From: Dimorphilus gyrociliatus
Lineage: Eukaryota; Animalia; Annelida
Assembly: GCA_904063045.1 (NCBI GenBank)
Contig: CAJFCJ010000057.1
Location: forward strand, 30,439 to 94,438
Length of the DNA stretch: 64,000 nt
Reading direction: 5' to 3'
The notes under the pieces are model-generated. The model saw nothing but the letters and a program-made list of their open reading frames with translations, was not told where the DNA came from and ran no database searches. A program made the translations under genes and the position numbers. This document shows, in pieces, positions 983 to 64,000 of the stretch (position 1 is its first letter; each line of letters starts with the position of its first letter).

Positions 983-2750
983 ATGGCGGCAAAACAATAT
1001 GTCATCAGTGAAAATGATCTTAAATGTGCAATTTGCTTAGATTCAGTGGTGGGAAAGGATCCAAGAATACTACTTTGTCAACATACGTATTGTTTTGGAT
1101 GTATTCAACAATTGGAAATGAAAAATCATGAAATCTGCTGTCCAGAATGCAGACAGACTATCAAAGTACCAAAAGGGGATATTAATCAACTTGAAAAAAA
1201 TCGAATTGTATACTTAAGAATATACTTAAGATTTAATAAAGAGCAAAAGCCTTTGCAAATATCATGGGGAAGCAACAGATATGTATTGCCAAACACATGG
1301 TATTGAAAGTTTATGTGTTTCTTGTTTGGATGACAAACATGAGACTTGTAGTATTATTTCAATGAAAAAATTTAAACAAATGAAAGAAAAATTTGATAGA
1401 TTTTTGGAAAAAGACAAAAAAAATACAACTGAGATTTTGAATAAAATTAATGAATATGAAAGAAAAGCAATAATAAAAATACAAAGAGAATATGATACTC
1501 TGAGGTTAAAGTTTTATGCACTAAATAGATTAAAGAGAGAATTTTTCCAGACATTTTCAAATCAACAAGAAACACTTGAAAAACTTTCACAAAGATCAAA
1601 TGAAAAAGAATTAGAAATTCACACAGATATTCGAGTTCGCTATAAATTTAACAATTATTTTGATACTGTTACTAGAGGTGAAGTAAATAAGTTTAATGAT
1701 TATCAATTGAAAACGTATTCAAATCTGAAAAGAGAATTAGAAAATGATAAAACTCAAATGTCTGAAACATCTATAGTTTTTCGTAAAGTTGAAGAGATGG
1801 AATATTTTTTATCAAAATATCCAAAAATATTTGTCAATTTTAAGGATTGTAAACTCAACATGAAACAATGTGAAATTATAGGAAGTTTACTACGGAAATT
1901 TTCTACGATAGAATCTATATGTCTATCCTCTAATTTGGATATGGATAATGGATTTTTGGATATTTGTAGTGGGCTTCGATTATCATCAAACAGTTTAAAG
2001 ATTCTACAGTTAAGTAATTGTTCTTTTAATGTTATACATACTAGAGAGATTGGAACTTTGCTACAGCGTTGTACCTCAATAGAAACCATACATCTATCTG
2101 GGAATACAATGATGGACAATGGAATAGTGGAGATTTCTCTCGGACTTGTACATTTAAAACACACTCTGAAGGATATTGATTTATCATTCTGTAAATTAAG
2201 TAATGATCAATGCACAGAAATTGCAAAAGGGATAAAATCCTGTTCCACACTAGAAACAATAAATTTGAATGGGAATAGAAATATGGGAAATGGAATCAAA
2301 AATATATTTGAAGGACTTCAAACTTCATCAAAAACCTTAAAGAATCTTCAAATTGAACTGTGTGATTTGAATGAGCTACAAAGCAAAGACATTGGAAATT
2401 TGCTAAAACATTGTTCTACAATAGAAACAATAAATCTATGTGGGAATACTGAAATGAAAAAGGAAGTAATAAATATTTGTAATGCTCTTCAAATGTCATA
2501 TAACACTTTGAAAAATTTAGATTTATCTCGTTGCAAATTGACTAAAGGAAAAAGATCACTGATTGAAAATTTGTTAAAGAGTTGGGGTGCGAACGTACCT
2601 GGGTGTGAACGTACCCGGGTGCGAACGTACCCTGGGCGGGTGCGAACGTACCCAGGTACGTTCGCACCCTATTTTTATATTTATTTTATTTTTGAATTTT
2701 TGAATAAAAGATTTAGCTATAAATCTAAAAGTATGTATTTAAAAGACTAA
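983..2750 (+). CDS. TRIM-like E3 ligase: RING + B-box2 + coiled coil + RNI-like LRRs; C-terminus replaced by read-through into a MULE TIR
   Basis: C3HC4 RING (CAIC..CQH..CFGC..CPEC); B-box CKYH..YCQTH..CVSC..H in the next frame, joinable by a 34-nt GT-AG intron at 1208-1241; four ~57-aa LRR pairs. Confidence 0.8.
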
Positions 2751-5260
2751 ATATTATACTAAAAAACAATAAAGCTTGACAAATGATATTTATGCTGGAG
2801 AGTAGATATGGGATGTCTGCATTAATAGATCAATTGATGTCAATTTGTTCAACTTGAAATCATCCCATAAATCAAAAATTTTCTTTTGGATGTCAATATA
2901 CTTTTTCTTTTGATGTTTGTAAATCCTTTTTTCTGACAGTAATTTCTCATAAACTGCAATCAACTCAGACTCTTTTTTTAGCTCATCAACCAGCATGTAA
3001 AAAGAACCTTTAGCAGGCAGCTTACTATTCATTCTTTGATGCCATCCTTCACAATCATTATTGGTCCTAATAGACAAACCAAAAACTGACCAGTTATTTG
3101 GTTTCCATAATTTATTTTTGATCCAGTTTGTTTGGAAGTATTGCAGCAGGTCCAAAAATCTATTTTTTTCACAAAGTTCTGCATTTATGCTGTCAAATGT
3201 TGGTTGAATAATATGTGCTGGCAAGAATGGCAGAGCCATCAATTTTCTGAAATCTTTCCAATCATTTCCTTTTTCTTTGTATTTCTTTACATAGCCAAGA
3301 GCCTATTCAATAATATAAGTTATTTAATAGATAATGTTATATATATTTGAATGTAACTGACTTGTATTTTCCTGTATACTGCTTGTGTGAAATGAAATAC
3401 ACAACCTTGAAATTCAGTGAGGGGATATACTTTTGATAATGCTTTCCATAGTCCTTTTTCAAAATCCATTGTAATTCTTTTTGGATGAAAATCATTGATA
3501 AGATTGTTGATATGCTACAAAAAAGCAACTTTATTTATCATCACTTTTGAAGAGATAATATGAAATATTTACTTGAAATGCTTGTAAGTATGCTTTGGTA
3601 TGCTTTGAAGTCAGAAAAATAAAAACAAGAGGAACTTGCTTCATATCACCACTCTTCTTAACAAATGAGTGAATAGTGACAAGTTGATAAAATGGTTCTT
3701 TTACAATCTTGAAAGTACCATCAATGTACCAACAGTTGGATTTTGATAATAAATTCAGCTGATGGTTTGTTGCAAAGATTAAAATTCTTTCTCCATTTTC
3801 ACAAATATCTTTCTGCAAAAATTCATCAGGCAAAAATGTTTCATCTAAATTAAAGTTGTACACTTTAGGTTCCACTGGCCTAAACTTTTGTCTATTTGAG
3901 TTTGCCATTCTCTTCAAATAGTTGATATCAGGAAGACAAGTTGCATTGGGTTCATAGGATAGAAGAACTTTTTCAGCAATGCTTCTTCCAGATGTTTGAT
4001 TATCACTTCTGCAAACAATTTTCAAATCTGTTTTCACTTTAATATCCACTTCTAAATTCTTTTTTCTGTTGTGATTATGTTCCAAATTGCCTTTGAGAAA
4101 TAAATTTCCATTTTGTCTTATTCTGGCCACACATCTTTTCTTCTTACTTCTCACACTGCACACCCAAATAGTACTTGATGGTGTTTTATGTTTAACAACA
4201 AAAGAATATCCATCATTCAGTAAAATGTCATGTCCCTTTCTACTTCCTCCTTTTACAATCTCAAAATCACTTTTTGTGGATGATTCACAATATTCTTCAG
4301 CATTCTCTTCAACTTCCTCCAAAGAGTCTAGGTCCATTGATTGTCATTCTGAAAGAACATGATTTTCATCCTCCAATATTGATTCCTCAACTGCAGCAAT
4401 CTTATTTCTTTCATCAATAAAGCTTTCTTCAGAATTTACTTTGAATTGATGAATTTCCAGATTAGTTAACTTCTTGAGCATGACAGTACATTTTCTTTTG
4501 TTACAAGGTTTGCAAATTGGTATGTTATGTGTTTCTATAAGAATATGTTAAAAAATATAATTACATGAAAGCTGATTAAAGAGTTACATACCTGTGCATT
4601 TCCTATGAATAAGATTCTTACAAAGGCTGCATTTCAAATATTTTTGCCTTCCATAAATTGTTGAATGACAATTGTGACATTTGAAAGCCATTTTTTAATC
4701 TTCAATCAAATGTAGATGGTTATCTAAAAATATTTCCAGTTATCAATAAATTTCCTTTCCAAATATTCAAAATGGCTGAAATTTTATTTATGAAAAATAT
4801 TCAGCTTTTTCACAATTGAATATAGTATATTACATCAAAATATCATGAATCAACAATCTCAATGATTAGATATAAATACTCACTTCTGTTGAAGCTTCCA
4901 AGAAGAACTTTGTCCAAATTTATTCAGTAAATATAGCTTTACTTTTGCAAGGATAAATATTCCAAGTGAAAGTTTATTTAATAAAACTATCACTATTAAA
5001 ATGGCTGCTATTTCACTTTCAACAACATTTTCTTTTAAAGTAGTAATAATATTGTTGGGATATGTATTCTATTTAATATCTGCATTCTATCTAATCAATA
5101 TATTAACAATTATATTATGAAGGAAAAGAAGGAAAACAGGGTGTCAATGTACATGTTTATTCAAAAATTCAAAAATATAAAAATTGGGTGCGAACATACC
5201 CAGGTACATTTGCACCCACCCAGGGTACGTTCACACTCAGGTACATTCGCACCCAACCCC
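2578..5260 (-). mobile_element. Mutator/MULE DNA transposon with ~120-bp terminal inverted repeats
   Basis: Left gagttggggtgcgaacgtacc..ttttgaatttttgaataaa matches the reverse complement of the right end; imperfect TSD aattt-gttaa / aatttagttaa; internal transposase. Confidence 0.9.
2790..4691 (-). pseudogene. MULE transposase (PHD finger, FLYWCH-like, MULE DDE domain), 4 exons, in-frame TGA at 4346-4344
   Basis: Exons about 4691-4592, 4534-3573, 3513-3364, 3302-2790; motifs WYIDGTFK, ITMDFEKG, GCVFHFTQAV, RTNNDCEGWH. Confidence 0.85.
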
Positions 5261-7898: not shown

Positions 7899-8412
7899 GA
7901 AAATTTAGAGGCTATGGAATGGGAAGAACAAAAATGAATTACACAAAGTTACAAAGGGTTTCACGGTAGCACTAACTCATTTTTATGCATTTTGAAATTG
8001 CTGTTCTAAAATCATCATTTCTTATAAATTGCAAGAACAAAGATATTTTTATACATGAAAATAGATATAAATCAATGCTTATATTCCTATAAATTGATAT
8101 GCCTATATTCTTTCTTTATGAATATATGATGTTTGTCTGGTAAAAAATGTAATTTTTGTGATATTGTTCTACAAGAATTATTGAGGTTTATCAATCAATT
8201 TTTCAACAAATAGGAAAAGTTTGCTAGATAGTTTCTCTGTAGCAGAATGATCAGAACATGTATTCATTAATATTAATAACATAAAATGTAAATAGGTCGT
8301 TGATACACATAAATAGGTTCCGATGGGTGCAATTTCAAATAAGTTTGGCTACATCAAGTTACGATTTTCCCCTTTCCTTTAAAACTGTCGTTTGCCTATG
8401 TGCTTTTATTAA

Positions 8413-37665: not shown

Positions 37666-37929
37666 AATTACAATTACCACCATTACCATTTTCAACACTG
37701 ACAATTGGAAACTTGGTTATGTTACATATTTTAAGCTAAAAATTCTAGAGAGTAGCTATTGATCAATTATTTAAAAAAGTATAATATAAAAAATTGTCTT
37801 TGTTGTAAAATATAAAAATCATTTATATTTGGCAAAGAATAATTAACTGAAAATATGTTCAAATATTATGAATTGTTCATAAATCTCAAAATGAATTGTC
37901 TGCCCCACCAATTAACGGAATACTTTGTA

Positions 37930-38330
37930 CTTTGTTGTATTGTAATTGTAGGGATTTCTGGCTCTTCACAACAGTAATTGCTCTTTCCAATCATTTACTA
38001 ATTTGCCAAAGTGCTCAAACAAATAGAACCTTTCAAGTTTGTCCACAAAATACTAACCTATTAGAATAAATTTAATTTTAAATTAATACCAATTTATAAA
38101 AAAATAGTCGAGAGTTTTGCCACTAGAATATGTATTCAGTAATTGAGTTTCCAATCTAATAGTATAGTTTAGTATACTTTTAAAGATTAGAGACTGACAA
38201 GCTTTGGATATGCAATTCCTTATATACATTTACCAAAGCTTGGGTTCAAATGGTCAAAGGAATACAAGGGTGAAATGATGCCTCAGCTCCCCTAGAGCTG
38301 CTTGCTTGTGAAAGTCAAAGTAAGAATTGA
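37930..38330 (+). mobile_element. Gypsy relic (integrase C-terminal region and downstream), inverted relative to 41940-42280
   Basis: tactttgttgtattgtaattgtagg, caaatagaacctttcaa and catttaccaaagcttgg match the reverse complement of 41950-42280. Confidence 0.6.
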
Positions 38331-39112
38331 ATAACACCTTGGAATTGTTTGATTCCCTTTTTTTATCTAGTAATTTTTAAATCTTTAATATGGTGTCATT
38401 TAATTGAGAAACTCCCAAAGCACTGTTTATTTGATTTCATTTCAAGCTAAAATTCTAGTTCATACTGTCACCAATTCATTTTGCACAAATAATTTCCAGA
38501 ATGTTATTTACTCAAAAAGTATTTTAATGAAACAATAATGTAATTGGTAGTAGTTACATAAAGGAGCCAACTCTTGTACTCCTAACACCAAGTGAAAAAA
38601 TATGGTGTATTTTTAGTGTCATATCAGCTAATCCTGATTTAATACAGACCTCTTTTGCTGATTTTTAGAGAAATAGTTAGATCTGTTTGGGATTGTTAGG
38701 GTTGGACAACTTAGTCATCATGGATTTGATTAATATAAGAAACTTGAGGAAAACAATAACAGGTTATTTGTAAATTGTTCACTATTTGATATAGTAAATT
38801 AGGAACTTTTCAAAATGGTAAACAACATTTTATAAATTAATTGGCAATTAAGAAATAATTAGACAAACAATTAATTAATTAATTAACAACTTGTTAGTTT
38901 ACAATGAGGCCATGGACTAATGTCTTTGTTTTGTATGTTTAGCATTATCTTTGAAAATGCAGCTAACAATTATGGAATGTTTATAAATGCAAATCTACCT
39001 GCAAAGTACACAAATAAGTTCTGATTAATTAAGTTTTCTCTAGAACAAATAGTATCAATTTTCTTTCCTCTTTTCTTTTATTAAAGTCAATTAACACTCT
39101 GTTCAAGGTTAT

Positions 39113-40132
39113 TTGATGATGGAAAAGATGACATCAATAGAAGTTATATATAAAGATGGGGGCTGTTGTTATTTTACAGTTGGCTACAAAATGGAAAATA
39201 TAACATTTTCAACAGACACAATCGATCTAGACTTTTTTAACCCATTTTTTGTTTATATTTCTCTAACTTTTGTTATTGGTGTATCTTCAAATTTTCTAAT
39301 TTTATGTTTTTATAATTTCAAAAAACAAAGTTTTAATGCTAATGATATATTTATAAAAGCTATGGCAATAGTTGATATATCAATATGTGGAATTTGTGGT
39401 CCTTACGCTACTATCCTGGAAATGGGTTTTATTAGAAATGATACAATTTGTAAGATAACTATATTTTTCAAAAATTTTATTCTGGTGACATCATCATTTA
39501 TCTTTGTATTTATTGCTATTGAAAGATGGTTTGCTATTTGCAGACCACTAAGAAAATTGAGTGAAAAACATATAAGAATTATGTTTATGCTAATTGGCTC
39601 ATTTGCATTAGTATCTGGTTCATTTAATGCTATAATTCATAAAATCAGAATTGGCAAAAGATATGATGGTCGAATATTAGAAAATTGCTTTTACAAAAGT
39701 GGCATTATTCACGAAGTTCATAAATATGTTATTTGTTTCCTATATATAGGAACTGTGATAGTATTGTACTTAATTTATGGTCTAATCTATAAAGTTATCA
39801 TTAAGAGAAGTTTCAAATTTAAAAAAATGATTAGACCTAATGACGAAAGAAATATTTCAAAAGAGTTTAAAGCGTTTAGTAAAAATATTAGAACAGTATC
39901 AATGTTGTTTGGTGTTACAACAATTTATCTACTCAGTTGGTTTCCACATTCATTTGAAACTGCTGGTCTATTACCATCCAACATCTTCTTGTATAATATA
40001 TATTTGGTTAATAATTCTTCAAATTTCTTTATTTATATTATATTTCAAGTTTCATTTAGGAAAAAACTAATTCAATTTTTCTTTCCTAAATATCAAATAT
40101 CTAGAAAAGATTCCCAATCAGCTTCTAATTGA
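39113..40132 (+). CDS. Intronless rhodopsin-family (peptide receptor-like) GPCR
   Basis: Seven hydrophobic segments; SN in TM1, AIVD in TM2, IAIERWFAICRP, SWFP in TM6, NNSSNFFIY in TM7. Confidence 0.9.
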   Translation: MMMEKMTSIEVIYKDGGCCYFTVGYKMENITFSTDTIDLDFFNPFFVYISLTFVIGVSSNFLILCFYNFKKQSFNANDIFIKAMAIVDISICGICGPYATILEMGFIRNDTICKITIFFKNFILVTSSFIFVFIAIERWFAICRPLRKLSEKHIRIMFMLIGSFALVSGSFNAIIHKIRIGKRYDGRILENCFYKSGIIHEVHKYVICFLYIGTVIVLYLIYGLIYKVIIKRSFKFKKMIRPNDERNISKEFKAFSKNIRTVSMLFGVTTIYLLSWFPHSFETAGLLPSNIFLYNIYLVNNSSNFFIYIIFQVSFRKKLIQFFFPKYQISRKDSQSASN

Positions 40133-41899: not shown

Positions 41900-43300
41900 C
41901 ATGTCTTTGTTATATGTGCATTGTGAGACTGTTACATTTCAACTTCATAATCTTTTGACCAAGTGAATCCAAGCTTTGGTAAATGTATAAAAGGAAATAC
42001 ATTTCCCCAGTTTGGCAGTTCAGTTCTTAACGGTTAACTGGTTGTTTAAACTTGCTAATTTAGAACTAGAAACTCATTTACTCAATACATATCCTTTAAA
42101 TGAAATACTGGCATTTTGTTGATTAATTTCTACTGAAATTACATTTGTTAAGACTACTTGTGGACGAATTTGAAAGGTTCTATTTGGACCAGTACTTTGG
42201 CTTATTGGTAAATGATTGGTGAGGACGAATTAAATCATAACGAACTCGAAATTCCTACAATTACAATACAACAAAGTACAGTTTTATTAACTCTATCTCT
42301 GTATTCCTTCTTTTTCAAAGCAGATTTACAAAGTGCAGCAGTTCTGATTTCTTCCATTTCATGCTTTCTATCAAGTAGGAAATTTGTTGTTGGTTCTAAT
42401 CTTGGGATTTCCATTAATAGATCTAAAATGTTACTATTTTTTAATCCAAATAATATTTCATGTGGGGTTTTGCCAGTGCTTCCAACTGGAATTTGGTTTA
42501 AGCATGTTTGAATTATTGGTAATTGTCTTGTTCAATCTGTCAATTGTTCCATAACTACATGTTTATGTAGTGCTTTGCAAATTTGCAAATTCTTTCTGTC
42601 TACCATTCCATTGCTTTGGCTATGAAATGCTATTGTTTTAATTTTTCTTATTCCCATTGATGATACCATTTCTGTTCCCCAAGAAAATTCCTTCCTTGAT
42701 CTGTAAGAACTTCTGGAATACCAAATATTGGAAAATAGTTGAAAAACAAATGTTTGAAAATTTCTTATGCTGTTTGTGTTTTTAGAGGGAATAGATTAGC
42801 AAATCTTGACATGTGATCTATAATGACAAGTATATATTTGTAAGAATCATGTCCAGTCAAAGGTCCCATTATGTCCATAGCCATTCTTTTGCATTGGTAG
42901 AGTTGGATGAGGTGTTTCAACCAACAAGTGTTCCCTGGTGCTCTTAATTGCTCATAAAATTCACAATTCTTTATGTGGTCTTTAATTTTCCTCTTTAATT
43001 TTCGATGCCAAAAGGCTTGTTCTAATGTATGAATTGTTATATCAACACCATAATGCTCAAATAGCTGATGTTGATAAATTTGTCCAAGTAGGACCAAAAA
43101 GGGGTGAGGGTGAGTCATTGCACTGAACAATTTCAATAGTACATAGCAGAAAAGGAAGAGATCATTGTGCCCTCATCCATCATAAAGGCCTGATTTGGCA
43201 TCTGTTATAATCAAAAGGTTTTATCTCCAAAGATATTGATGGATTGTTCTTCCCCTAACTCTTGCATATGAATTTTTAACTATGGAGAAAAATTATGACC
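41900..43300 (-). mobile_element. Degenerate Ty3/Gypsy integrase relic related to the element at 56938-64000
   Basis: MAMDIMGPL..YKYILVIIDHMSRF, HSQSNGMV, QIPVGSTG and AALCKSALKKKEYRDR parallel the intact element. Confidence 0.85.
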
Positions 43301-49059: not shown

Positions 49060-51466
49060 TTAATGGTTTACATGAAACACTTTCATCATAATACTCATGG
49101 CATTTGTATGGATAAACTGAATTAAAAGATTATGAAATTCTTTAAATACAGGTATTATTTTTCTCCAATTATTCTTGACAAGAGTTTCAACAATTTCAAA
49201 TATCATTTTGCTTGATTCTCTTGTTGCTTGGTAACTAAAGTTCATTTTATCATTAAACTCTTCTATACTGTGAGTCTCTACAATGGCTCTGGTGACTTTT
49301 CTATAAGAGTAATGACCTGAAAAGCTGTAATAGAGGTCATATCTCCCATCAACATTTGGATTTAATTTCGCTGTCCAATAAGGTCCAAATAATTTCGTCA
49401 TATTCCTCAATCGATTTTCAACAAAAGACATAATGTCTTCCGTCCTTTCTCCATTGGCTCTCATTTTATGAAACTTTTCATATCCCTCTAAAACTGTAAT
49501 CCAAACTTCCATAGATTCACTGAAATCATTAGTCAGCTTTCCTGTATCAATTTTAATAATAGTATTAATGAAACCTCCATAATAATAATAATGAAAAGAA
49601 CCAATATAGCCAAAAAAATTTGATTGAAAATTTTCTTCCGAAGATTCTAACAAGATGCACAAAAATTTTGAAATCCATATAGGTAAATTGTAATGAGATA
49701 TCCTAGTATGCATATTCTTTTCCAAAATTGGATATAAGGTTTTGGAAAGTATATATTTATTCTTATTAAAAAATTTCAATACATTTCCAATAATTTCGTG
49801 TTTACTCGCATCGCACTTCTTGTCAGGGGCTTTTATTAGTTCAATTATACCAATTTCTTCAAGATCTTTATAGATATTCCAGATATTTTTACTTAGTTTT
49901 ATAATATTGTCAAGATTCACTGATGCTCTTTCATGAAGCACAAAATGTCGAAATTCTTCAATGAAATATCTCAATTTAGAATTCTCCGACAAGCCTAAAC
50001 TGATGAGTAACTGATGATCATTGTCAATTTTTACAAAATTTTTAGCCAATTCATCATTCCTTGATTTAGTCATTTTAAAATCATTAGAAACCAATTGATT
50101 GAAAACATCAACATATTTTAACCAGTTTTCACCATAACTATTTAATAAATCGTCTAGAAATTGTTTAATTTCAAAAATTTGAATTTTGATTGGCCATTCT
50201 AAAATTATGTTTGTTTTCTTTATGAATGAAAATAATTTTTCACAAATTTCTATAGTATTTAAAAAGAAACTAGCTGAATGAAGAAATGGCGAAATTAATC
50301 TTTCATCACTTTCAACATACAATCTTGGAATTCCCAAATACATTGCCAAATTATTATTAAAGTCAATTTTATCTTTTGAATAAAGTATAGAGCACATGTT
50401 ATTCTTGAAAATTTCAATTTCTGATATAGCATTCACAAAAAATGAATAACTATACAGTGGAATTAGTGTCTTTATTAATTCTTTGTGTTTAATGAAAGTG
50501 GTTACAAATTTATCAATAGTTTTATCATAAGAGCACACTGGAAGAGTAAATACATTGTTTAAATAGAAGAATTTAATAATTTCAAAACCAGTTTTGTATG
50601 ATTGTAATATTTTGTTAATTTCATCTTCTGATTTTGTTCTTAATAAATTAAGAGAGTCAATTAGGAGATATTTGTATGAGTTGTAGTTATAAGTGTCAGT
50701 GACATTAAAATATTTTGCTGAATGAAATGGAATGAATGAGAAGACAAAAATTGAATAAATTACTAATATATACCTATAACTTGTGAAACAGCTCCTTTAG
50801 AATTGTCATCTGACATCCATAAATTTAATGATCTAAACAAATGATTTATTAAACGCAAAGATTCTCTATCATTCCACCATTTTCGACCATATTTTAAAGA
50901 CATGTCATTTATTATTTCAGTAAATTTCTCTATAAATTCCGATTTTTTTGACACATTTTCATTGATGATATTTTCACGAATATATTTCAATAATTCATTC
51001 AAATATTTAAATGCTAACTGAAATTTACCATCTTCCAGATAAGGTTTCAAATATTTATACTTTCTTCTAATTAAATAGGAAATTTCACTGGCAGATATAA
51101 TATCTTTAAAAATAGTTTCAGACAATTTTTTGCTCAATTCTCTCATTGATTTTGCATTTAAAATCATACAAACAGTCTTTGTAAGTTTATCACGATCTTT
51201 TAATACTTCGAATGAAGGATTATTGGAAATTTTGTCAAATGTTCTTTCATATAATCTTTTAGACATAACATTAGACATATCATGCTCAATCCAGTTAATA
51301 ATTGAAGTTGCCACTTCGGAACATGTTGTTGCTGATATAGCTGTAATGATAAAATTGAAATTTAGCATTAGAATTCTGTATTAAAAATGTAATATTAATA
51401 CTTACATTTCAAATTTACTTGAATAGGGAGAAGAGAAAGAAAAGCGAAATAAATGATCCACTTCAT
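49060..51466 (-). CDS. Orphan protein of about 750 aa, predicted helical, possible signal peptide
   Basis: 201-aa and 492-aa ORFs joined by a phase-1 intron at about 50775-50721; upstream exon MKWIIYFAFLSLLP does not join cleanly. Confidence 0.6.
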
Positions 51467-53322: not shown

Positions 53323-54912
53323 GGTGCAGTGACATTTCGGCCCAGGACATTTCGGCCCATTTTATGACTTTTTGAGTTAATTATGAATTAAATACAATAA
53401 ATAATAAAAAGCAATCAATTTTAAAATTGATAAAAAATATAATAAGTAATATAATATAGTAATTCCAGATATGTAAAATAATTATTATAAAATTCAAAAT
53501 ATTTTCAGAGTAATGGATACCAGTTTTCCTTATTTCTGAAGTATATTTTACATTGTTTTACAATTTCCTTTTCCTGTTTTGACAAATAGTAGAAGGTATA
53601 TTTCTGTTCTTCATTTATCATAGAAGCTTTAATAGAAATTACAACATAAATTTGAAAAACTGTTGGAAGTGTGGCTTAAGATTTCATTGGACACAAAGAA
53701 AATTCAGATGAAAGTTGTACAGACATTTTTATCATGTAAAGTGTTCAAAATGTAAGTAAACTCTCTAACTTTCTCAGGTATAATGCTATATCACCTATAT
53801 ATTAAGATGCAGATTATTGTCCTGATTGTCATGATGTCAGCAAACAGAAATTATTTATTAAATTAAAGAAAATAGATCATTATCATCAGAGTAAATTCAT
53901 CCAGAATATGATGAAACTGCTGTTATTATGGAATCATCAATGAATAATACAAGTGAAATAAATACCAATCAGGTAATTTCATTTGTTAAAAAATATTATT
54001 ATTTCACCATAAATTTTAACAGTTAAGACTTTCCTTTGACTTCAATTCACCTGAATCACCAAACAATGAAAAAAAGTTGAAAAGAGAGTTGATATAAGTG
54101 ATGAAACTTCATTTGAGATGGATAAGCATCATAGAAACAGAAAGAGATGATTTCAAAATAGTTGTAAGTGGAAGTACAAAAAATAAAGACTTACTTCTAC
54201 ACAAAAACTGTTCATATTCTGTAAAAAATTTTCTTTAAATTCTTTAAATTTAAGGACAATATCTTCTGCTATTCTTTTACCAGTTTTTCCATTATCACCA
54301 GTTGCCATTTCCTTTACATCCATTCTTGATTTAAGAACATTTTCTATGTTTTTATGCAATTTCATTAAAAGCAGTACTTGGCCTCCTCAATTCTGGTCTG
54401 TTTATCAATTAATTGTGAGAACAAACAATCATGTTGAGGCATGGCATTCCAGACTCAACAAAAATTTGAAAATGGATGAGAACTTTTATTCTGTAATAAA
54501 AGAATTGAGAAGAGAAGCCAAATTAGTAGAGATCTTTGAAAAGTTATTGTCTGAAAAAAAGTTGAGAAAAATACAGAAGAAGAAGTATAAAGATTTAGAA
54601 TTTAAAATATTCCAGTTGTGGAGTAAATTTGAAAAAAGAGAATTGAGTTTGGATGAATTATTGAATAGACTTGTTGATTTAAATATCTGTTAAAATTTGT
54701 TATTTCTTGGTCTGTATTTTAGTTATTAAACTTAACACTCCTTACTATTTGTAAATTGCTTTTTTTTATATTAAAAAAATAAACATAATTGTTCACAAAA
54801 TAAAAATTATATTTGTCATATTTATCAATTAATAAGTACTAAACCTATCTTCAAGTGAGACATAATGCCTTTAGTATGACTGCCTTAGAATGGACTGAAA
54901 TGTCCTGACCCC
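53323..54912 (+). mobile_element. Non-autonomous, rearranged MULE
   Basis: Termini ggtgcagtgacatttcgg / reverse complement ggggtcaggacatttcag; 9-bp TSD ctttttaaa / gtttttaaa; PHD remnant at 53660-53830; C-terminal RTNNHVEAWH at 54346-54693. Confidence 0.8.
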
Positions 54913-55860: not shown

Positions 55861-56937
55861 TTATGATACATATATATTTGATACTTTTTCCAATAGATCC
55901 ATTGCTGTTATTAATCCTAAATCATAATTGAATATTTTAACCTGTAATTTCAAATATTCTTTCTTTTGGTGTTTCTTCAACTTTCTCTCAGATAAAAGTT
56001 TTTTATAAACATCAATAAGAGAAGCTTCCTTATTTAGTTCATCTACTAATTGGTAAAAAGAGCCTTTGGCTAAGACTTTACTGTTCAATCTTCTGTGCCA
56101 AGCTTCAACTTCATTATTTGTTCTGACACTATAACCAAACACAGACCATTGTTGAGGTTGCCAAATTGAATTTTCAATCCATTGAGATCTAACATAATCT
56201 AACAAATCAGCATATTTGTTTCTTGCTCCCATATCATTCTCAATTAAATTGAAGATTGTTGGTATTGTAGTAGAAGGAAGAAATGGCAATGCTAATATCT
56301 TTTTTAATGTTGACCTTCCATTATTCATATTTGATTGATAATCTTTACTGTATCCCAAATTCTAAAAATATAGATAATAAAAGCTAAACTGTAACAAAAT
56401 TAACATATTCATCTTACCTGAATCTTTCTATACACAGCTTGGCTCCAATGAAATGCACACCCTCTTATGGATACTGCTGGATAAATAGATTTCAGAGCTT
56501 TCCAGAGTCCTTTGTCAAAATCAACAACTACCTCCTCTGGCATTGAATCATTAGTCATTTTTTTAATTTCCTGCAGACAAAAAATCAAGGAATAGAAAAT
56601 GAGTTATGCAATATTTTTTATAGACAAATTATACCTTTAATACATATTTGTAAGCTCTTGACTTTGCTGATGATATAAACACAAACATAAGTGGTACTTG
56701 TTTCACTTCACCATGTTTTTTAATGAATGAATGTATTGAAAATAGTTGGTAAAAAGGTTGTTTTACCACTTTGAAAGTTCCATCCATATATCATACCTTG
56801 CTCTTTGCTAGCAATTCCAATTGCTTCATTGATGCAAACATTACTATTCTTTCCTTTTCATTGTACTGCTCTTGCTGGCAAAATCTATGCGTTTGCAAGT
56901 TATAACAATACTGGTTCTACTCGAACCTTTAAACAAA
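55861..56937 (-). pseudogene. MULE transposase, 3' part, cut by the Gypsy LTR
   Basis: V*YMDGTFKVVKQPFYQ (Trp codon now TGA), GVHFIGAK-type middle exon, ALPFLP, RTNNEVEAWH; intron positions as in the 2790-4691 copy. Confidence 0.85.
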
Positions 56938-57496
56938 TGTTTAAATTAAAATGGTTTATTCGCAATAATAATACTTAAGCAAGTAACAATATGAGAGTTC
57001 AATAGCAGAGTAGATAGTTTGTAATAGCAGGTTGCCAAATTACCAAACTGTCTTCCAATGTTGAGGAGTAGATGGATGGTTCCAGTGGAGGTTGTTTCCA
57101 GATGATTTTCCCAGGTCCTTGGGTCCAGATGGAAGCTGCATGCCAAATGAGAATAATGAGGATTTATATACTTTGAGGTTTGTCTCTGACATCCAATCAT
57201 CACTTTACAGTTGCCAAAATGTGTAGTTCATATTTATCTTTAGTAACAGGATGTTACAAGGTTCAACATTTAGGAAGGTTAATTGAATTATAACTTGGCC
57301 ACACCCTAGGCAAGTTAATTAAATTATAACTTGGCCAAACCTTTATTGGTAATTAAAGATGAGCCTTCAAGCTGACTAATCAGACTTATGTTTGGCCAAT
57401 GTTATAGCATTTTCTTGCGTAGGTTTTAAGATGTACATGTATATGTTGCATAAAATAATAGAGTTCAAGCATGTAAAATATAACCAAAGTTGTACA
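56938..57496 (-). repeat. 3' LTR, 559 bp
   Basis: Minus strand starts TGTACAAC directly after the PPT and ends ..AATAAACCATTTTAATTTAAACA; MULE sequence resumes immediately beyond. Confidence 0.85.
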
Positions 57497-57511
57497 ACTT
57501 CCCCCTTCTTT
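57497..57511 (-). other. Polypurine tract
   Basis: aagaagggggaagt immediately before the LTR TG. Confidence 0.85.
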
Positions 57512-57527: not shown

Positions 57528-60500
57528 TCATCTTGATTTAATGAGAATTACAGGTGGTTGTTCTTCTTCATTAGTTTGATGTTGACTAAAGCTACAACTT
57601 TGTTTCATTAGTTTTGGGTTTTCAGGAGAGTTATCTGTGCTCTCACTTGGGGTAGCAATTTCTTCTCTTTGTTTTCTTCTTCCAATAATATAGTTGAAAA
57701 TGATGATACATACCATTGACACTACAATACTCAAACAAATATTTCGTATGATAACATAAAGTGTTTTCCCAGGTTTATAGTACCAACTATGGAAAAACTG
57801 TTTAATTCCAGATAAATTGGGTACAATGCCATTTTTCTCTGCAACAGTGACCATGTTATCATACCTTGCCTGCTTCTGTTCCAGTGAACTGATAACTTGC
57901 TTAATTTTTGAGTGCTGGTATGCAATATCCTTCTTTACCCCATGGTGGAGTAGATCAGCTAATCTGGCAATTTCAATTTTTGGTTCAGAAAGGTGATTGT
58001 GGATATGTAACTGCATGGATTTTGCAGACACAGTGTGAAATCTGCATCCTCTTTCTGAATAATACACATATGTTTTGTCTTTCATTGGTTGGTTTCTTAT
58101 AGGATTTAATGGGTTGTGAGTTGTTTTGTAGAATAACTTGTTAGACTTACACTCATTATAGGTAATCTCTTCAGGATTGACTTGCTGTAAAACATGAGTA
58201 ACTGGTTCTACTTGGAAAAGCAGGTTGTTCATGGTGACAAGTAAAAATTGAGAACATTTGTTATTCTTTTTTATCATGCTTAAGTCACAAACTACTTCTG
58301 TTGAGGCTATTGGTGAACATTGTTTAATTATAGCTAATTCTCCCATCTGACTACTGTGCATTCCCAACTCATTTGTTAACACTGTGGTCAATTGAGGATC
58401 CAAATTTGCTAGTAATGCCATCATTCTGCTTCTTTGAACAAATTGATTGCAGAGAAGACTTGACAGCTGTTGGGTAAACCTTTTTAAATTCTTAAAATTT
58501 GAATCAATACCATGTAGTAAGGTAGATGTTTGGGCAGCTTCTCTCATTTCCAATGGGAATTTGTGGTATGGGTTTTTACTTATCTTATGTTTCAGTTTTG
58601 CTTCCTTCTTCATCTGCTTTTTAGCCATTCTCATGTGTAGAGTAAAATAAATTCCTTCATAGGTAATCTTAAATTCTCTGGCTGGTGGTCCTTTATACCA
58701 TATGCCCAATGTTGGTAATACCTTCTTTTTGATTCTTTTCTCACTGTATACATATTTTGAAATCGTGACAGATTGTCTTGTTGCCCTTGTCCAATTGACT
58801 GCTTGCAGCATTTCTTGGATATAATAGTTATCCAGCTCCCAGTAAGATGGACTAATGGGTTGTTGTAGATGATATATCACAACTTCCTTGAGTGTGCCTT
58901 TATTTCTCATTAGTTTATACTTTGTGTTTGTTTCTCTGTACCATTGGTTAAGACTTGGTAAGGGGTTGTTTCGCTTGTATAGTATAATTTGTTCTTTAAC
59001 TTTATTGGGATAGTTTAATAGTCGTTTTTCTTCATTTTTGCCAATCTTCTGATATTGTAGCAAATTGTATAGGTGTTCCTTGCTTGTTTCCTGTATTAAA
59101 CTCTGTTCCTCCAGTGGTACTAGTACTTTTGTTCCAGGACCACCAATTCCATCAATAAACTTATCTTGATAAGGGATGTCCAGAATAGAATACCCTGGAC
59201 AAGAATAGTGACCAGCAAATTTGATACAACTAATTCTGTTGCTAATTTTTATCCATGGTGATTGTTGCCCAAGTGTGTAATTATTCTTGAGGTTCCTAAA
59301 GACAATAATTGCCTCTTCTGTTTCACAATAGGACTGCCCTGGTAAACAATCTTCCAGGTAGTCCAGATTAGTTGTAATTTTCATATTAGGAGGTTGCCAA
59401 TATGCTTTGCCAAACTGGATAATTGTGGTGTATTCCAGCACCTTGGTCGTTGTTGGCCATGTGTAGGCAGCAGGAAACTGATCTTGGTGGATCCAAGTGT
59501 TTCTTTTCACCATTAAAGGTTTTCCTTGAAAAGATCGTTTGTCTTTTATCATCTGTCTGCATTGATCATGAGTTACTTTGATAACTGAGTTAACAATCCT
59601 CCTCTTCTTTGCTCCAAAGAAATAGTAAGTGTAAAAATTAGTTCTTAGATACACTTGACATTTTACTGCTCTTGTTTCAATTTCTTCCAAGTTCAATTCA
59701 TAGATATCAGCTGTAATTGTCTTGGTTTCTTGTGATTCTATATTACAAGTTGGCTCATCTGCTAGATCAAATGCCTGGCTTGGTAGTTGGTTAGAACAAA
59801 AGTATAACGGTGGTTTAAATGTTAAGGTAATGTTTGCACTTGTAACATGGGCACCTTGGTAGGATGGTTTTGGGACTGTTATTGAGTGGATGCAGCCACA
59901 GATCACCATTACAGTCATCACTAGTGGAAGCCACAACATCTGTTTCATGTTAGCTCTTCCTGTGTTGGCTATAGTTGAATGGTTGAAAATTTTGTGTTGT
60001 TGTTCCACTCTGATAGTTATTCCATCTTCTAACTCTATATATTGTGGTTCCACTTCTTGTTGGGAATCTAATTGTTCAGAGATGATTTTAGTCTCATCTA
60101 AAAATATGACTGACTCATTGTCTGTATCACTTGTATTTTCTTTCTCATCTTGGGATGAATCTACCACTATGAGGGACTCATTATCTGAATGGGTTATGTC
60201 AATAATTTCACCTTCAATAATTATTGACTCATTATCCGAATGGGTTATATCAATAATTTCGCTTTCAATAATTATTGACTCATCGTCTGAACTAGATATT
60301 TCATCTTCTCTATCAGAGATAATGTTTGCCTCTGAATCTGTATTTTGATCCAGTTCATTATTTGTTTCTGTGTCATCACTTTCAGATGAGCTTGAAGGTT
60401 CATTGAGACTGTAATTACTGTCTGTTTTGAAAGTATTGCTTGTGTCATAACCAGTATCAGAATTAGTAACTTCCATCTCTGAGTCATCACTATCTGAACT

Positions 60501-61385
60501 TTCTGATGAAGAGTCATGCTGTCCCATCATGGCTATAGTGACTTTGTTTAGTTGAGGTTGCCTTATTCTTTCAGCCAGGTTCCCTTTCCTTCTATCAAAT
60601 TTGAGAGAACACTGTTTAGCTTCAAAATTGAGGTTTGCTCCCACAGTTTGTAGGAAATCACAACCAAGTATTATTGCTATGTCTAGATTTTCCATAACTA
60701 TAAATTCTTGTTCCATACTTTCTCCAGCAAATTGGATATTCAGCTTTACGCTTCCTTTTTGCTTTAAAGCTTTCCCATCAGCTGAAGTTATAATTGGTAA
60801 GCCAATTGTTTCTTTATCCATAATTGTAACATCCATTAACTTGATTTCTTTTTCAGTAATAAAGGATCTCAATGCTCCTGTGTCACACAAGGCAATGACT
60901 TCTTGGCCTTTTTGATTCTTCAAACGGAATTGGAAGTCATTTCTTCCTTCTACCTGAGAAAGATATTGGAGGTGTGTTATTTCCTTCTCCACAAGGTGAA
61001 AGATTGTTGTTGCTTCTTTCCCTGTTTCCAACTTATTAGATTCATTGGCTAGTCTTAATCTGCTACCATGTACCAACTTGCATGTATTATCATCCATTTG
61101 TATTTCATATATCCACTTTTGATGATTGACTTTTGTTATTCGGTATGGGCCTAACCATTTTAAAGAAGGGATTTTTGTTATTGCAATTCTTGCAGCATCA
61201 TTTCTTAAGAATACTTCATCATCAACCTCAAAATATTTTGGAAGATTGAGATTTCTATTCTTTCTTTCCCTATATTGTTCTTTTGCCATGATGGATTTAC
61301 AGAAGGCTGTAGCTCTTAACTGTACTAATTGCTGCTGGTGATTGAATACAAATAGTACATTTGTTTCAGGAGAGGTAGTATGCAT
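57528..61385 (-). CDS. Integrase C-terminal GPY/F domain + retropepsin + acidic linker + signal/TM + class III-like envelope + TM (1285 aa)
   Basis: KWLGPYRI; ALCDTGALRSFI..IILGCDFL; WLPLVMTVMVICGCIHS; Cys-patterned ectodomain; TM ICLSIVVSMVCIIIFNYII. Confidence 0.9.
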   Translation of the reverse strand: MHTTSPETNVLFVFNHQQQLVQLRATAFCKSIMAKEQYRERKNRNLNLPKYFEVDDEVFLRNDAARIAITKIPSLKWLGPYRITKVNHQKWIYEIQMDDNTCKLVHGSRLRLANESNKLETGKEATTIFHLVEKEITHLQYLSQVEGRNDFQFRLKNQKGQEVIALCDTGALRSFITEKEIKLMDVTIMDKETIGLPIITSADGKALKQKGSVKLNIQFAGESMEQEFIVMENLDIAIILGCDFLQTVGANLNFEAKQCSLKFDRRKGNLAERIRQPQLNKVTIAMMGQHDSSSESSDSDDSEMEVTNSDTGYDTSNTFKTDSNYSLNEPSSSSESDDTETNNELDQNTDSEANIISDREDEISSSDDESIIIESEIIDITHSDNESIIIEGEIIDITHSDNESLIVVDSSQDEKENTSDTDNESVIFLDETKIISEQLDSQQEVEPQYIELEDGITIRVEQQHKIFNHSTIANTGRANMKQMLWLPLVMTVMVICGCIHSITVPKPSYQGAHVTSANITLTFKPPLYFCSNQLPSQAFDLADEPTCNIESQETKTITADIYELNLEEIETRAVKCQVYLRTNFYTYYFFGAKKRRIVNSVIKVTHDQCRQMIKDKRSFQGKPLMVKRNTWIHQDQFPAAYTWPTTTKVLEYTTIIQFGKAYWQPPNMKITTNLDYLEDCLPGQSYCETEEAIIVFRNLKNNYTLGQQSPWIKISNRISCIKFAGHYSCPGYSILDIPYQDKFIDGIGGPGTKVLVPLEEQSLIQETSKEHLYNLLQYQKIGKNEEKRLLNYPNKVKEQIILYKRNNPLPSLNQWYRETNTKYKLMRNKGTLKEVVIYHLQQPISPSYWELDNYYIQEMLQAVNWTRATRQSVTISKYVYSEKRIKKKVLPTLGIWYKGPPAREFKITYEGIYFTLHMRMAKKQMKKEAKLKHKISKNPYHKFPLEMREAAQTSTLLHGIDSNFKNLKRFTQQLSSLLCNQFVQRSRMMALLANLDPQLTTVLTNELGMHSSQMGELAIIKQCSPIASTEVVCDLSMIKKNNKCSQFLLVTMNNLLFQVEPVTHVLQQVNPEEITYNECKSNKLFYKTTHNPLNPIRNQPMKDKTYVYYSERGCRFHTVSAKSMQLHIHNHLSEPKIEIARLADLLHHGVKKDIAYQHSKIKQVISSLEQKQARYDNMVTVAEKNGIVPNLSGIKQFFHSWYYKPGKTLYVIIRNICLSIVVSMVCIIIFNYIIGRRKQREEIATPSESTDNSPENPKLMKQSCSFSQHQTNEEEQPPVILIKSR

Positions 61386-61396
61386 TGTTACATCAA

Positions 61397-63304
61397 TCAG
61401 TGTTCTTGTGCTGGTGCCAAAAAGAAGTTCCTGGGTGGTAGTCTTGTACTTCCTACAGGTGATTGATTCAAAAATGCTTGAATCAAGGGTAGGTTTGCAA
61501 CCCAGTTATGCTGATTTTCTTCCACCACTAATTTATTGATTTCCTTCCTCACTTCTCTATTTCTTCGTTCAACTAGTCCATTGCTCTGGCTTCTATAAGC
61601 TGTTGTTTGGATTTTCTCAATACCTAATACCTTCATAAACTCTTTAAAAGCTTTACCAACAAAGTTTCTTCCTTGATCTGTCAACATTTGTTTTGGAATT
61701 CCAAAAATGGGAAAAAATCTGTTGAAAAGAAGGTTTGCAATTTCTTTACTGGTTTGCTGTTTGAGTGCATATAAAACTGTGTATCTACTGAAATGATCCA
61801 CTATCACAAGTATGAATCTGTATGACTTAACCATGGGTAAGGGTCCCATTATATCCATGGCTACCAACTCCATTGGTGATGCAGGGTGAAAGGTTTCTAC
61901 CAAAGGGTATACTCTACTCCTACCATTCATTTGTTCACACAAAGTGCAATCCTTTATTGAATTCTCAATCATAATCTTTAATTTTGGGTGCCAAAAGGTC
62001 TTTGTAATTATTTGTAATGTCATTCTGGGTCCATGGTGATTGTGAATTTTATTTTTATGGAATTTAGGGAGCAGAGTTAGCATCAAATGGTCAGGTAAAA
62101 CCAGAATGTTTCTTTCTTCAAGGATAATCCAGATCATTTCCTTGTGAACAAACATCTCCATTATGAAAGGTGTAAAAGTTCCAAAATAAGGAATAGGTAG
62201 CTGACCATCCAATGTTAAATATTCTTTAATTGATTTTAAATTCACATCTTTTTCTTGCTCTGACTGTAAGTCAACAGAAGACAAATCAATTTTCTCTTCA
62301 CTGTTATCACTGGTAGCTACAAAAGTTAACTCTGGTGTATGTTCATACTGTTCCATTTTAACTGAAATAGAGGGAGAATTCTCCTTTTTGATCTTTCCAT
62401 GAATTAGCTCTTCAAATGTTACTTTCCTTGGGGGTGTATATTCTTCTAATCTTGTTAATGCATCTGCTCTATTTTTTCGTCCTGTCACATAGTTAATTGT
62501 AAATTTTAAATCCATTAAAGCCATGACCCATTTTGCTGTGCTGACATTCAATTTGTTTTGCTTAAATGTTTGTACTAGACTCTGATGGTCAGTATATAAA
62601 AAGAATGGCTTGTCTTGAAGGTAATGTAAAAATTTCTTTACAACCCAGTAAACCCCAAATGCTTCCTTTTGATAGGCTGCATATTTCATTTGATTATTGT
62701 TGAATTGTTTTGAAGCGTAGGCAATGGGTTTCATTGTTTTCTTCCCATTCTCATCTACATAAACTTGTTCAAGAACTCCTCCTACAGCTACATTCGATGC
62801 ATCTGTTGTTAAGTGAAAATCTTTAGCAAAATCAGGTAGTTGTAATACAGGAGGGTTAACTACTGCATCTCTCAACTTGAAAAATGATTGCTTGGCTTCC
62901 TCAGTCCATTGCAATTTATCCTTTTTCCCATGTAGTTTCATTAACATATACAGAGGTTTAGCTACTCTTGCAAAATCTTGTATAAATTTTCTGTAATAGC
63001 CACAAAATGCAACAAAGCTTAGTAGTGAATTTGCAAACACTGGTGGCTGTAAATTATATAATTTATCTGTCTTGGACTTATCTGTTTCAATCCCCTTTTC
63101 TGATACAATGTGTCCCAAGAATTGAACTTGTTCTTTCAAAAACACACATTTACTTAGTTTAATCTTAAAATTGTACTTTTGAATCTGTTGAAGAATGGTC
63201 TCCAATGCTTCCCAATGTTGGTCCAGCGACTTGGTAAATATTATTATGTCATCAAGGTAGTTTAGGCACAAATGCTTTACATCCTTTAGCACAAATGAAT
63301 TCAT
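61397..63304 (-). CDS. pol: pol: RT C-terminal half, RNase H, integrase zinc finger and core
   Basis: NYLDDII, FLGHIVS, LTTDAS, YTDHQSL, HNHHG..CTLC, AMDIMGP, TDQGRNF, QSNGLVER. Confidence 0.95.
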   Translation of the reverse strand: MNSFVLKDVKHLCLNYLDDIIIFTKSLDQHWEALETILQQIQKYNFKIKLSKCVFLKEQVQFLGHIVSEKGIETDKSKTDKLYNLQPPVFANSLLSFVAFCGYYRKFIQDFARVAKPLYMLMKLHGKKDKLQWTEEAKQSFFKLRDAVVNPPVLQLPDFAKDFHLTTDASNVAVGGVLEQVYVDENGKKTMKPIAYASKQFNNNQMKYAAYQKEAFGVYWVVKKFLHYLQDKPFFLYTDHQSLVQTFKQNKLNVSTAKWVMALMDLKFTINYVTGRKNRADALTRLEEYTPPRKVTFEELIHGKIKKENSPSISVKMEQYEHTPELTFVATSDNSEEKIDLSSVDLQSEQEKDVNLKSIKEYLTLDGQLPIPYFGTFTPFIMEMFVHKEMIWIILEERNILVLPDHLMLTLLPKFHKNKIHNHHGPRMTLQIITKTFWHPKLKIMIENSIKDCTLCEQMNGRSRVYPLVETFHPASPMELVAMDIMGPLPMVKSYRFILVIVDHFSRYTVLYALKQQTSKEIANLLFNRFFPIFGIPKQMLTDQGRNFVGKAFKEFMKVLGIEKIQTTAYRSQSNGLVERRNREVRKEINKLVVEENQHNWVANLPLIQAFLNQSPVGSTRLPPRNFFLAPAQEH

Positions 63305-64000
63305 TACATAACTAAAATGAGGAGGGCATTGGTTAATCCAAAAGGCATCTTAATAAATTCAAACAAGCCAAAAGGTGTAATAAATGCTGTTTTAGACCTA
63401 TCTTCTTTCTTGATGTTAATGTGGTGGTATGCACTTGTCAAATCCATTGTAGAAAAGAATTTATTTCCTCCTCCCAAATGGTCAAAAAGATCATCTTGAT
63501 TTGGCAGTGGATACTTGTTTTTAACTGTCATTTTGTTTAGTTTTCTATAATCTACACACATTCGTAGACTACCTTCCTTCTTTCTTACGAAAACAATTGG
63601 TGAAGCCCAATTGCTCTTGCTTGGTTGAATAACTTTGCTTTTTACCAATTCAGCTATCTGTTGCTTACATTCTTCTTGTTTTTGAGGAGGCATTCTATAT
63701 GGCCTTTGTCTATATGGTGTTGAACCTGGTTCAAGAGTTATTTCCAAGGGTGGTACCTCTGGATTGCCAATATCAAATCTGTCTTCTGCAATAGTTTCTT
63801 TTATTTGCCAGAATTTGGGTAACTTTGTTCTTCATCTCGGATTTCTTGTTCAATTGTTGTCTGAAGGTATGTATTTGACTCTCATTCTTTTTCATAATAA
63901 GAGGAACTGGGTTAAAACCCTTTGAAAGATAAGTGTTGTGTTCCAACAGGGTAATTCTTTTCTGTACCTGGCTGGAGTATAATCTGTCTCTTGCCAAAGT
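63304..64000 (-). CDS. pol: pol: pre-RT linker and RT N-terminal half, one frameshift near 63800
   Basis: RQRPYRMP, WASPIVFVRKKEGSLRMCVDYRKLN, YPLP, DLTSAYHHI, KTAFITPFG, MPFGLTNA. Confidence 0.9.

Follow-up and report, generated by a model that had tools for sequence, protein, structure and literature searches.

Can the aspartic protease of an LTR retroelement stand behind the integrase, in one frame with an envelope, and would it then be the only protease of the element? The question is raised by a 64,000-nucleotide stretch of Dimorphilus gyrociliatus DNA (hereafter the window), which carries on its minus strand an envelope-bearing Ty3/gypsy copy with the order RT-RNase H (RH)-integrase (IN)-protease (PR)-linker-Env. 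The features of this locus are as follows, in the direction of the element:

63913..64000, minus strand: end of the beta-rich spacer domain normally found between protease and RT, read from an edge motif of the type N-x-S-x-x-x-V-x-I-x-x-G-T
63304..63831, minus strand: N-terminal half of RT, a frame piece (Pfam RVT_1, E=3.7e-14)
61397..63349, minus strand: C-terminal half of RT (YLDD at 63259), RNase H, integrase zinc finger and DDE core, a frame piece (Pfam RVT_1, RT_RNaseH, Integrase_H2C2 and rve)
57528..61505, minus strand: long ORF of 1325 codons with integrase C-terminus, retropepsin, acidic linker, signal, Env, transmembrane helix and tail
61053..61160, minus strand: GPY/F (SH3-like) C-terminal module of integrase (GPY at 61151; BLAST to control tails)
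60600..60911, minus strand: retropepsin (DTG 60884-60876, flap, IILGCDFL 60674-60651)
59949..60580, minus strand: linker of about 210 aa, acidic and rich in Ser, Asp and Glu; 51 nt of it are duplicated in tandem (60175-60276)
59995..60056, minus strand: 62-nt block directly ahead of the Env signal, conserved in a sister family with 7 differences
59883..59948, minus strand: Env Met and predicted signal sequence, internal in the long frame (hydropathy)
57765..59882, minus strand: predicted class III fusion protein ectodomain, gB / VSV-G / thogoto Gp-like (model, Foldseek, VIA)
57687..57764, minus strand: Env transmembrane helix (hydropathy up to 2.69)
57498..57511, minus strand: polypurine tract (PPT), from the sequence
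56862..57496, minus strand: 3' LTR, 635 bp, TGT...ACA, AATAAA at 56960
55861..56861, minus strand: transposase gene, presumably of MULE type, into which the element is inserted (tblastn)

The RT-RH-IN order is of gypsy type by Pfam, and 120 relatives were listed with gypsy-type RT/RH/IN domain sets. The GPY/F module scored under the cut-off with Pfam Integrase_p58_C (E=0.047). The interrupted gene is about 50% identical to another copy in the window (tblastn); its MULE label comes from motif recognition. Contigs join the LTR end to the primer-binding site (PBS), a loose end there, and to the 5' region; the 5' LTR of the window copy lies outside the window, as do about 1540 bases between PBS and window edge. 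The assembled pol is split into several frames, with breaks near 63.9-63.8 kb, 63.32 kb and 61.43 kb, so that only the last third of integrase is in frame with the protease. An earlier reading of this DNA from its sequence alone gave the domain order correctly and overlooked these breaks. At the break sites, contigs from all four runs compared differ from the window by one-letter indels and lack the breaks, which are therefore assembly errors or private to the window copy.

The sequence-only reading placed a complete retropepsin in the same frame after the GPY/F module, and motifs and profiles confirm it: D[TS]G, flap and hydrophobic-G-x-D-hydrophobic helix are present within about 100 aa, DTG and IILGCDFL lying where they had been reported. 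The failure of retropepsin HMMs that would have spoken against this was not seen, as both RVP_2 (E=6e-6, 26.5 bits, cut-off 20.3) and RVP (E=6e-5, 23.6, cut-off 20.7) scored above their Pfam cut-offs. RVT_1 and rve, also proposed as a check, matched as well; gag-asp_proteas and Asp_protease_2 matched the same protease stretch slightly below cut-off. A profile of 70 control gypsy proteases gave a single match to this stretch (E=2e-16), which was also its sole match at E<1 in six frames of the whole window. A single-sequence fold of integrase tail plus protease was a low-confidence model (pLDDT 32), and a PDB sequence search with the protease region returned only a weak match, ASPRV1 (E=0.14).

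The stop-free run from the protease through an acidic linker and a signal-like stretch into an envelope was borne out, 57528-61505 containing no stop. Judged by base composition, a stop-free run over the 210-codon linker would arise by chance with a probability of about 6e-8; stops number 16 and 35 in the two alternative frames of the linker. No Pfam family matched the linker. Among its six changes of known size, five are frame-neutral: length changes of 147 and 102 nt, a 3-nt insertion, a compensating pair and the 51-nt duplication; the frame-breaking one is a 107-nt change in run X5 (1/6). Env begins at 59948 with a Met and a hydrophobic stretch (hydropathy up to 2.07 over 19 aa), a predicted internal signal sequence. 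The Env model had a pLDDT of 52 overall, mostly 66-92 over residues 81-280, so that only the fusion-domain half was modelled with confidence. It matched HSV gB (E=2e-7) and VSV G (6.5e-7) in Foldseek and aligned with HSV gB in VIA (Z 9.6, rmsd 8.1, 208 aligned); one Env relative, P0124, matches Pfam Rhabdo_glycop_FD above cut-off. As modelled, Env conforms to the HSV/gB-type class III proteins, with putative signal, class III ectodomain and C-terminal transmembrane helix. None of the 12 matches of a HMMER protein search with Env extended back to a protease, and six of them begin with a Met followed by a hydrophobic leader.

We favour, with a probability of about 0.55, the reading that in this IN-PR-linker-class III Env element the protease likely cuts the replication proteins from the membrane anchor formed by the Env signal. 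Translation would yield a single Pol-PR-linker-Env polyprotein, probably Gag-Pol-PR-Env, whose internal signal would thread Env into the ER, where host signal peptidase would release it at the lumen side. The signal remnant may then tether the cytosolic part and concentrate protease monomers for dimerisation, upon which the protease would free integrase, RT and capsid. Direct release of Env by the protease seems less likely than this division of labour, in which signal peptidase would cut Env and the protease free Pol from the anchor. In alphavirus and flavivirus polyproteins, a viral protease detaches a cytosolic protein from the signal anchor of an envelope protein; the enzymes there are serine proteases, unrelated to retropepsin. 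The polyprotein view is favoured by the mostly frame-keeping linker changes and by the protease-linker-Env order in the family and its sister, and single Gag-Pol-Env frames exist elsewhere (P0139, Atlas). Against it, Env has its own Met and signal, six of the 12 Env relatives have a comparable start, and Env could be produced separately. The Gag-Pol-Env polyproteins P0139 and P0151 manage with an N-terminal protease alone; a protease at the post-integrase place is therefore not required.

The post-integrase protease has about an even chance of being the only one, relocated, and a chance a little under even of being a second one; the remainder falls to a decayed first protease. That this is an active multi-copy lineage with Gag-RT-RH-IN-PR-Env, in which tethering of a sole protease beside the Env anchor would trigger maturation of the whole polyprotein, we hold tentatively. 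The best-surviving alternative, nearly an even bet, is that the ordinary protease between Gag and RT was kept and that the post-integrase one came as an envelope-borne module, a second specialised or passenger enzyme, for example from an internally deleted donor element. It concerns origin and overlaps with the explanation favoured above. The sequence-only reading had found no D(T/S)G in about 110 codons upstream of RT; the absence holds, over the only 78 or so codons present in the window. At the window edge there remains what appears to be the last part of the spacer domain, which in relatives comes after the protease; this speaks for a second protease. This edge motif was the best of 196 positions, with a null frequency of 37 of 70680 in a post hoc test; the partial codon ahead of it is compatible with the Asn present in 65 of 68 controls, and it lies 78 codons from RT (control median 81). 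An ordinary catalytic Asp would be expected 146-229 codons (median 173) past the edge, leaving about 280-360 for leader and Gag. The roughly 1540 bases beyond the edge have room for Gag alone or for a short Gag plus an ordinary protease. In single-element controls with Gag, the Asp stood at 300-324 in three of ten; in the other seven it stood at 347 or more, which does not easily fit, whereas Gag alone fits well. Divergence of the protease tracked that of the window RT no better than in mismatched controls, which would suit a module of separate origin; the rho of 0.26 lies between the medians of matched (0.51) and mismatched (0.00) controls and does not separate the two. An internally deleted, diverged copy in run X5, in which the start of RT is fused to the linker (63535 to 60518), indicates that such derivatives exist. 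On the other side, a conserved second enzyme might make the first dispensable.

Other candidate traces of a first protease were not borne out. Read as a protease tail, the window edge scored no better than shuffles in an HMM (514/1000); its 8-mer ranked within the top 0.3%, yet it was outscored by two neighbouring 8-mers, and the tail of the real protease had a negative score. The spacer reading of the edge is therefore preferred, post hoc. The first 101 aa of DgyrCDS14789 were equalled in score by 79 of 1000 shuffles.

A less probable alternative, which we consider unlikely, is that Pol ends in IN-PR-linker and that Env, as in Drosophila gypsy, is translated from its own ATG (59948) on an RNA that is spliced or has an internal start; the missing stop would be secondary and the protease would carry out ordinary Gag-Pol processing from an unusual place. 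The classical-looking signal behind the Env Met, the same kind of start in 6/12 relatives and the DNA-level conservation of the 62-nt block agree with it, and the eLife survey lists the element as GAG-POL with ENV_HSV (PMC13524379). A pyrimidine-rich AG stands at 59969, 21 nt ahead of the ATG, but three further AG sites within 400 nt score equally. No env splice joint was present among the joints shown, which come from contigs only, and the run from linker to signal has no stop and mostly frame-keeping length changes. The two routes, separate Env and polyprotein, can coexist.

Contigs of four DNA-type runs span integrase, protease and envelope: 58523-64000 in X1, 58588-61816 in X2 and 58268-62653 in X3, with single contigs over 59700-61400 in X1 and X4. 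Run X6, which probably stems from base-converted DNA, was excluded: C>T and G>A changes abound in it. A diverged sister family (X4 record 5) matches the C-terminal half of the protease (60637-60747, 17 differences), the DTG codons not being among the rows shown; the flap and tail of a protease can be read in its loose ends. In the few rows shown, four of five codon differences are at third positions and only two are silent. The sister's pre-Env block lies 727 letters past the protease match, versus 580 in the window; the rest of the linker has no alignment, only this 62-nt block being conserved. A nested insertion, a chimeric assembly or a chance motif is thus very improbable: the pol frame breaks would suit an error-prone assembly or a decayed copy, but the frame is continuous here, the junctions are bridged in four runs, the sister family keeps the order, no internal LTR or long repeat besides the 51-nt tandem is present, and the internal length equals that of a published intact copy. 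The origin of PR-Env from a separate nested element, which would have overturned the initial description, is not what these copies display. In the main X5 contig, 60 nt of the protease are missing in the manner of a GT..AG intron on the plus strand, which suggests antisense RNA; a sense polyprotein message finds no support in it.

How unusual is this order? Among 118 control Pols, the protease preceded RT in 102, was not detected in 16 and followed integrase in none. Reshuffled Pols have a precedent in Gmr1-type gypsy and Ty1/copia elements (PR-IN-RT-RH); there the integrase moved, not the protease. Gypsy elements P0139 and P0150 also have Env in frame behind integrase, class III in P0139, but their sole detected protease lies between Gag and RT. 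Metaviridae share LTR, PBS, PPT, the RT-RH-IN order and an env downstream of integrase with the window element, whereas their standard Pol has the protease first (ICTV, PMC7879559). Pol domain order is described as conserved in LTR retroelements (PMC12440569, PMC7879559). Atlas virus (Belpaoviridae) is described as having Env in frame behind integrase, of class II and not class III as here (10.64898/2026.03.22.711591).

The element family is already catalogued. The window element matches Annelida_Polychaeta_Dgyr_errantivirus_1 in its 12-nt PBS, 635-bp LTR, internal length (8049-8050 versus 8049) and HSV/gB-type Env, an identity that rests on landmarks and not on sequence alignment; the survey reports seven copies at at least 98% identity, and its published copy lies on CAJFCJ010000063.1, with the 5' region at about 2300-4100 (Chary and Hayashi, eLife 2026, PMC13524379). 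It also reports a chromodomain after integrase (HHpred, AlphaFold), whereas the window element gave no Pfam Chromo at E up to 10, a domain detected in 4/4 controls. The family is probably Dingle, a D. gyrociliatus Ty3/gypsy family in which integrase is followed by a gB-like envelope (Martin-Duran et al., 2021, PMC7854359). Two D. gyrociliatus proteins carry related pieces, DgyrCDS14789 of this family and DgyrCDS14603 of a related Env.

What is new here, as far as the searched paper text goes, is the protease behind integrase, in frame with Env. Fusion of Env to Pol, present as first described, is not in itself unusual: the eLife survey names GAG-POL-ENV and POL-ENV arrangements, and its main text mentions "protease" a single time, for the standard order, and does not use "aspartic" at all (PMC13524379). 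The text, legends and supplements searched for Dingle do not give the protease position; the domain boxes of Extended Data Fig. 3d, outside that scope, may already show the order (PMC7854359). With these bounds, and with none in the 118 controls, the initial statement that no standard LTR lineage is known to have PR between IN and Env stands; a prior catalogue entry exists for the family and was not found for the order. Word-index protein searches with the integrase-tail/protease region and Env gave no matches among proteins of 728-2319 aa, the ESM Atlas no usable match for integrase tail plus protease, and the viral and metagenome contigs scanned no related locus.

Pol domain order is used to define LTR retroelement families (PMC7879559, PMC12440569). 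Presence of a retropepsin after integrase in a living family would mean either that the enzyme can act at the distal end of Pol or that an element can keep two. The family provides a natural test case for the link between protease position, membrane tethering and maturation timing, as well as for envelope capture. Such rearrangements can escape surveys limited to extracting RT, IN and Env, and the 1512 errantiviruses of the eLife catalogue (PMC13524379) therefore merit a scan for protease position. A second gypsy fragment in the window, at 42.2-43.2 kb, ends ahead of where a protease would stand.

The minus strand of the window carries, from 64000 to 56862, the 3' two thirds of a Ty3/gypsy LTR retroelement, inserted inside a MULE-type transposase gene and laid out as follows.

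63831-63304, minus strand: N-half of reverse transcriptase (RT), long frame piece
63349-61397, minus strand: C-half of RT, RNase H (RH) and integrase (IN) core, long frame piece
61505-57528, minus strand: 1325-aa frame from integrase tail to TM helix
61151, minus strand, within the 1325-aa frame: GPY of integrase tail
60884, minus strand, within the 1325-aa frame: retropepsin (PR) DTG
Between retropepsin and Env signal, minus strand: acidic, low-complexity linker of about 210 residues
59948, minus strand, within the 1325-aa frame: Met with signal-like stretch, start of Env part
C-terminal part of the 1325-aa frame, minus strand: Env ectodomain, then TM helix
3' of the 1325-aa frame, minus strand: PPT, then 635-bp LTR with TGT...ACA ends

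The sequence-only reading had placed a retropepsin directly behind the integrase GPY/F domain and had read the same frame as open through the acidic linker and signal-like stretch into Env; the single 1325-aa frame bears out both points. The pol frame is broken in the window copy. Contigs of all four sequencing runs compared differ there by one-letter indels, and the breaks therefore either stem from the assembly or occur in this copy only.

In the HMM scan called for by that reading, the DTG segment scored above the cut-offs of Pfam RVP_2 and RVP and slightly below those of two further Pfam retropepsin models. A profile built on the proteases of 70 control Pols (long Pol relatives compared for protease position), with the window excluded, matched the element protease at E=2e-16 over almost the full profile length; it had no other match at E<1 in the six frames of the whole window. 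The best control matched at 34% over 82 aa (BLAST). At the sequence level, the post-integrase protease is genuine.

The search for Pol relatives gave 4700 candidates, 589 of which passed. Among the best 120 of these 589 long relatives, 118 had an integrase match; the protease lay ahead of RT in 102 of the 118, was not detected in 16 and lay behind the integrase in none, these controls being distant from the element (30-54% in the RT N-half). The post-integrase position is unusual. Three control gypsy Pols (P0097, P0019 and P0119) carry extra domains, PF02902, PF00443 and dUTPase (precomputed Pfam), the first two of which we take to be cysteine protease families. Pol-Env fusion is ordinary for env-carrying elements: some control Pols have Env in frame behind the integrase, as the element does (the 2337 aa of P0139 combine Gag, protease, RT, RH and IN with a class III Env), the eLife tables name GAG-POL-ENV and POL-ENV frames (PMC13524379), and Atlas virus is described as one Gag-Pol-Env polyprotein (10.64898/2026.03.22.711591).

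The proposed order RT-RH-IN-PR-Env stands; whether its protease was relocated or is a second one is a near-even choice. The window edge fits the end of the spacer domain found behind the protease of relatives, with RT at the expected distance (a post hoc fit), and the catalytic Asp of controls lies a median of 173 codons ahead of the spacer motif. With an ordinary first protease, about 280-360 codons would remain for leader plus Gag, a length that suits 3 of the 10 single-element controls that have Gag; the space 5' of the window edge suits Gag alone equally well. Direct tests for a first protease, and a comparison of protease and RT congruence, did not separate the two readings.

Searched with HMMER against 1.84 billion representatives, Env yielded 12 matches. 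The structure model (14-row alignment) was confident in the fusion-domain half only; Foldseek ranked herpesvirus gB, VSV G and thogotovirus glycoproteins at the top, and VIA-align returned class III proteins in its first eight rows (HSV gB: Z 9.6, rmsd 8.1, 208 aligned). The Env is class III.

From the order, frame, motifs and Env class found here, and their conservation in two families, we infer a long polyprotein whose internal signal would put Env into the ER, where signal peptidase would free it. The cytosolic part would remain membrane-anchored until the protease, concentrated there, cuts and matures it, and the acidic linker may be a spacer keeping the enzymes off the membrane. Alphavirus and flavivirus polyproteins offer a possible analogy.

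The main rival to such a polyprotein is a separate env message starting at Met 59948. A comparable Met begins Env in 6 of the 12 relatives and a weak splice acceptor lies shortly upstream, but no env junction was seen among the contig joints listed. In run X5, whose type is unrecorded, contigs pass over an intron of the adjoining MULE gene and, within the element, over three GT..AG stretches (59-66 nt each) on the plus strand, antisense to it (60796-60856, 58116-58174 and 57176-57241). One falls inside the protease, where most of the depth (678) is in the contig with the skip; this skip was absent in X1 and X4. X5 is probably RNA that includes spliced antisense transcripts, perhaps a silencing precursor, and its splicing does not support a sense message. 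Another X5 contig, diverged and of depth 27, runs from 63535 at the RT start directly to 60518 in the linker, skipping 3016 nt; it represents a derivative with an internal deletion, without most of RT, RH, IN and protease but with the linker and Env start.

Five of six linker length changes of known size are frame-neutral and one is frame-breaking, which suggests that the linker is translated. The window stretch was present in five runs from two studies, and single contigs of X1, X2, X3 and X4 join integrase, protease and Env start; the best-matching runs may be the window's own source and are therefore not independent support for the domain order. A diverged sister family, seen in one X4 contig, provides independent support for the protease-linker-Env order: the protease C-half is followed 727 letters on (580 in the element) by a 62-nt pre-Env-signal block, and the flanks translate as protease flap and tail. 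The RT-RH-IN-PR-Env order is a property of the family. Derivation of PR-Env from a separate nested element is very unlikely, as run contigs bridge the junctions and the sister family keeps protease and pre-Env block in succession. The DNA block kept between the sister families (59995-60056), the one alignable part of the linker, may serve as a cleavage site, as a splice signal or as an env promoter inside the element.

In X2 and X3 contigs, 1539 letters lead from 64000 to the LTR end, where a loose end shows the PBS. The PBS and the lengths of the LTR and of the internal region (the latter 8049-8050, compared with 8049) match Dgyr_errantivirus_1, a published D. gyrociliatus element; the family is already catalogued. 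That element is listed as having an HSV-type Env and 7 nearly identical copies, and is reported to carry a chromodomain, whereas Pfam finds none in ours (PMC13524379). Dingle is likewise described as a gypsy family of D. gyrociliatus with a gB-like Env (PMC7854359). A protease behind the integrase is absent from the running texts of PMC13524379 and PMC7854359 (the Dingle domain-box figure being outside this scope), and a search over the text of papers, rather than over Repbase, GyDB or eLife's sequence files, found none with this order. This is a known family whose protease position is apparently undescribed so far. Two matches are named Dimorphilus gyrociliatus proteins, one of them a public gene model with pieces of the family. 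In this model, P0130 (DgyrCDS14789), the pre-RT part, the end of Env and the LTR of the element are joined to domains of the TSP1 and C1q types; most probably a deleted copy was wrongly annotated there, though a chimeric gene driven by the LTR is possible.

Elsewhere in the window, a related gypsy element is represented by a decayed piece of integrase (42230-43172, minus strand; 31-43% identity) that ends before the GPY/F module. MULE-type transposase copies lie at 2600-5255, 54187-54693 and 55861-56910, one of them between 83-nt inverted repeats (2600-2682, 5173-5255). Two intronless minus-strand ORFs of 578 and 205 aa (49060-50796, 50763-51380) match no Pfam family above cut-off. Two inverted-arm pairs (37926-38277 and 41935-42280; 77-80% complementary), with 42-nt repeats outside both ends, surround an intronless 345-aa GPCR-like ORF (39095-40132) and may represent a DNA transposon with a host gene.
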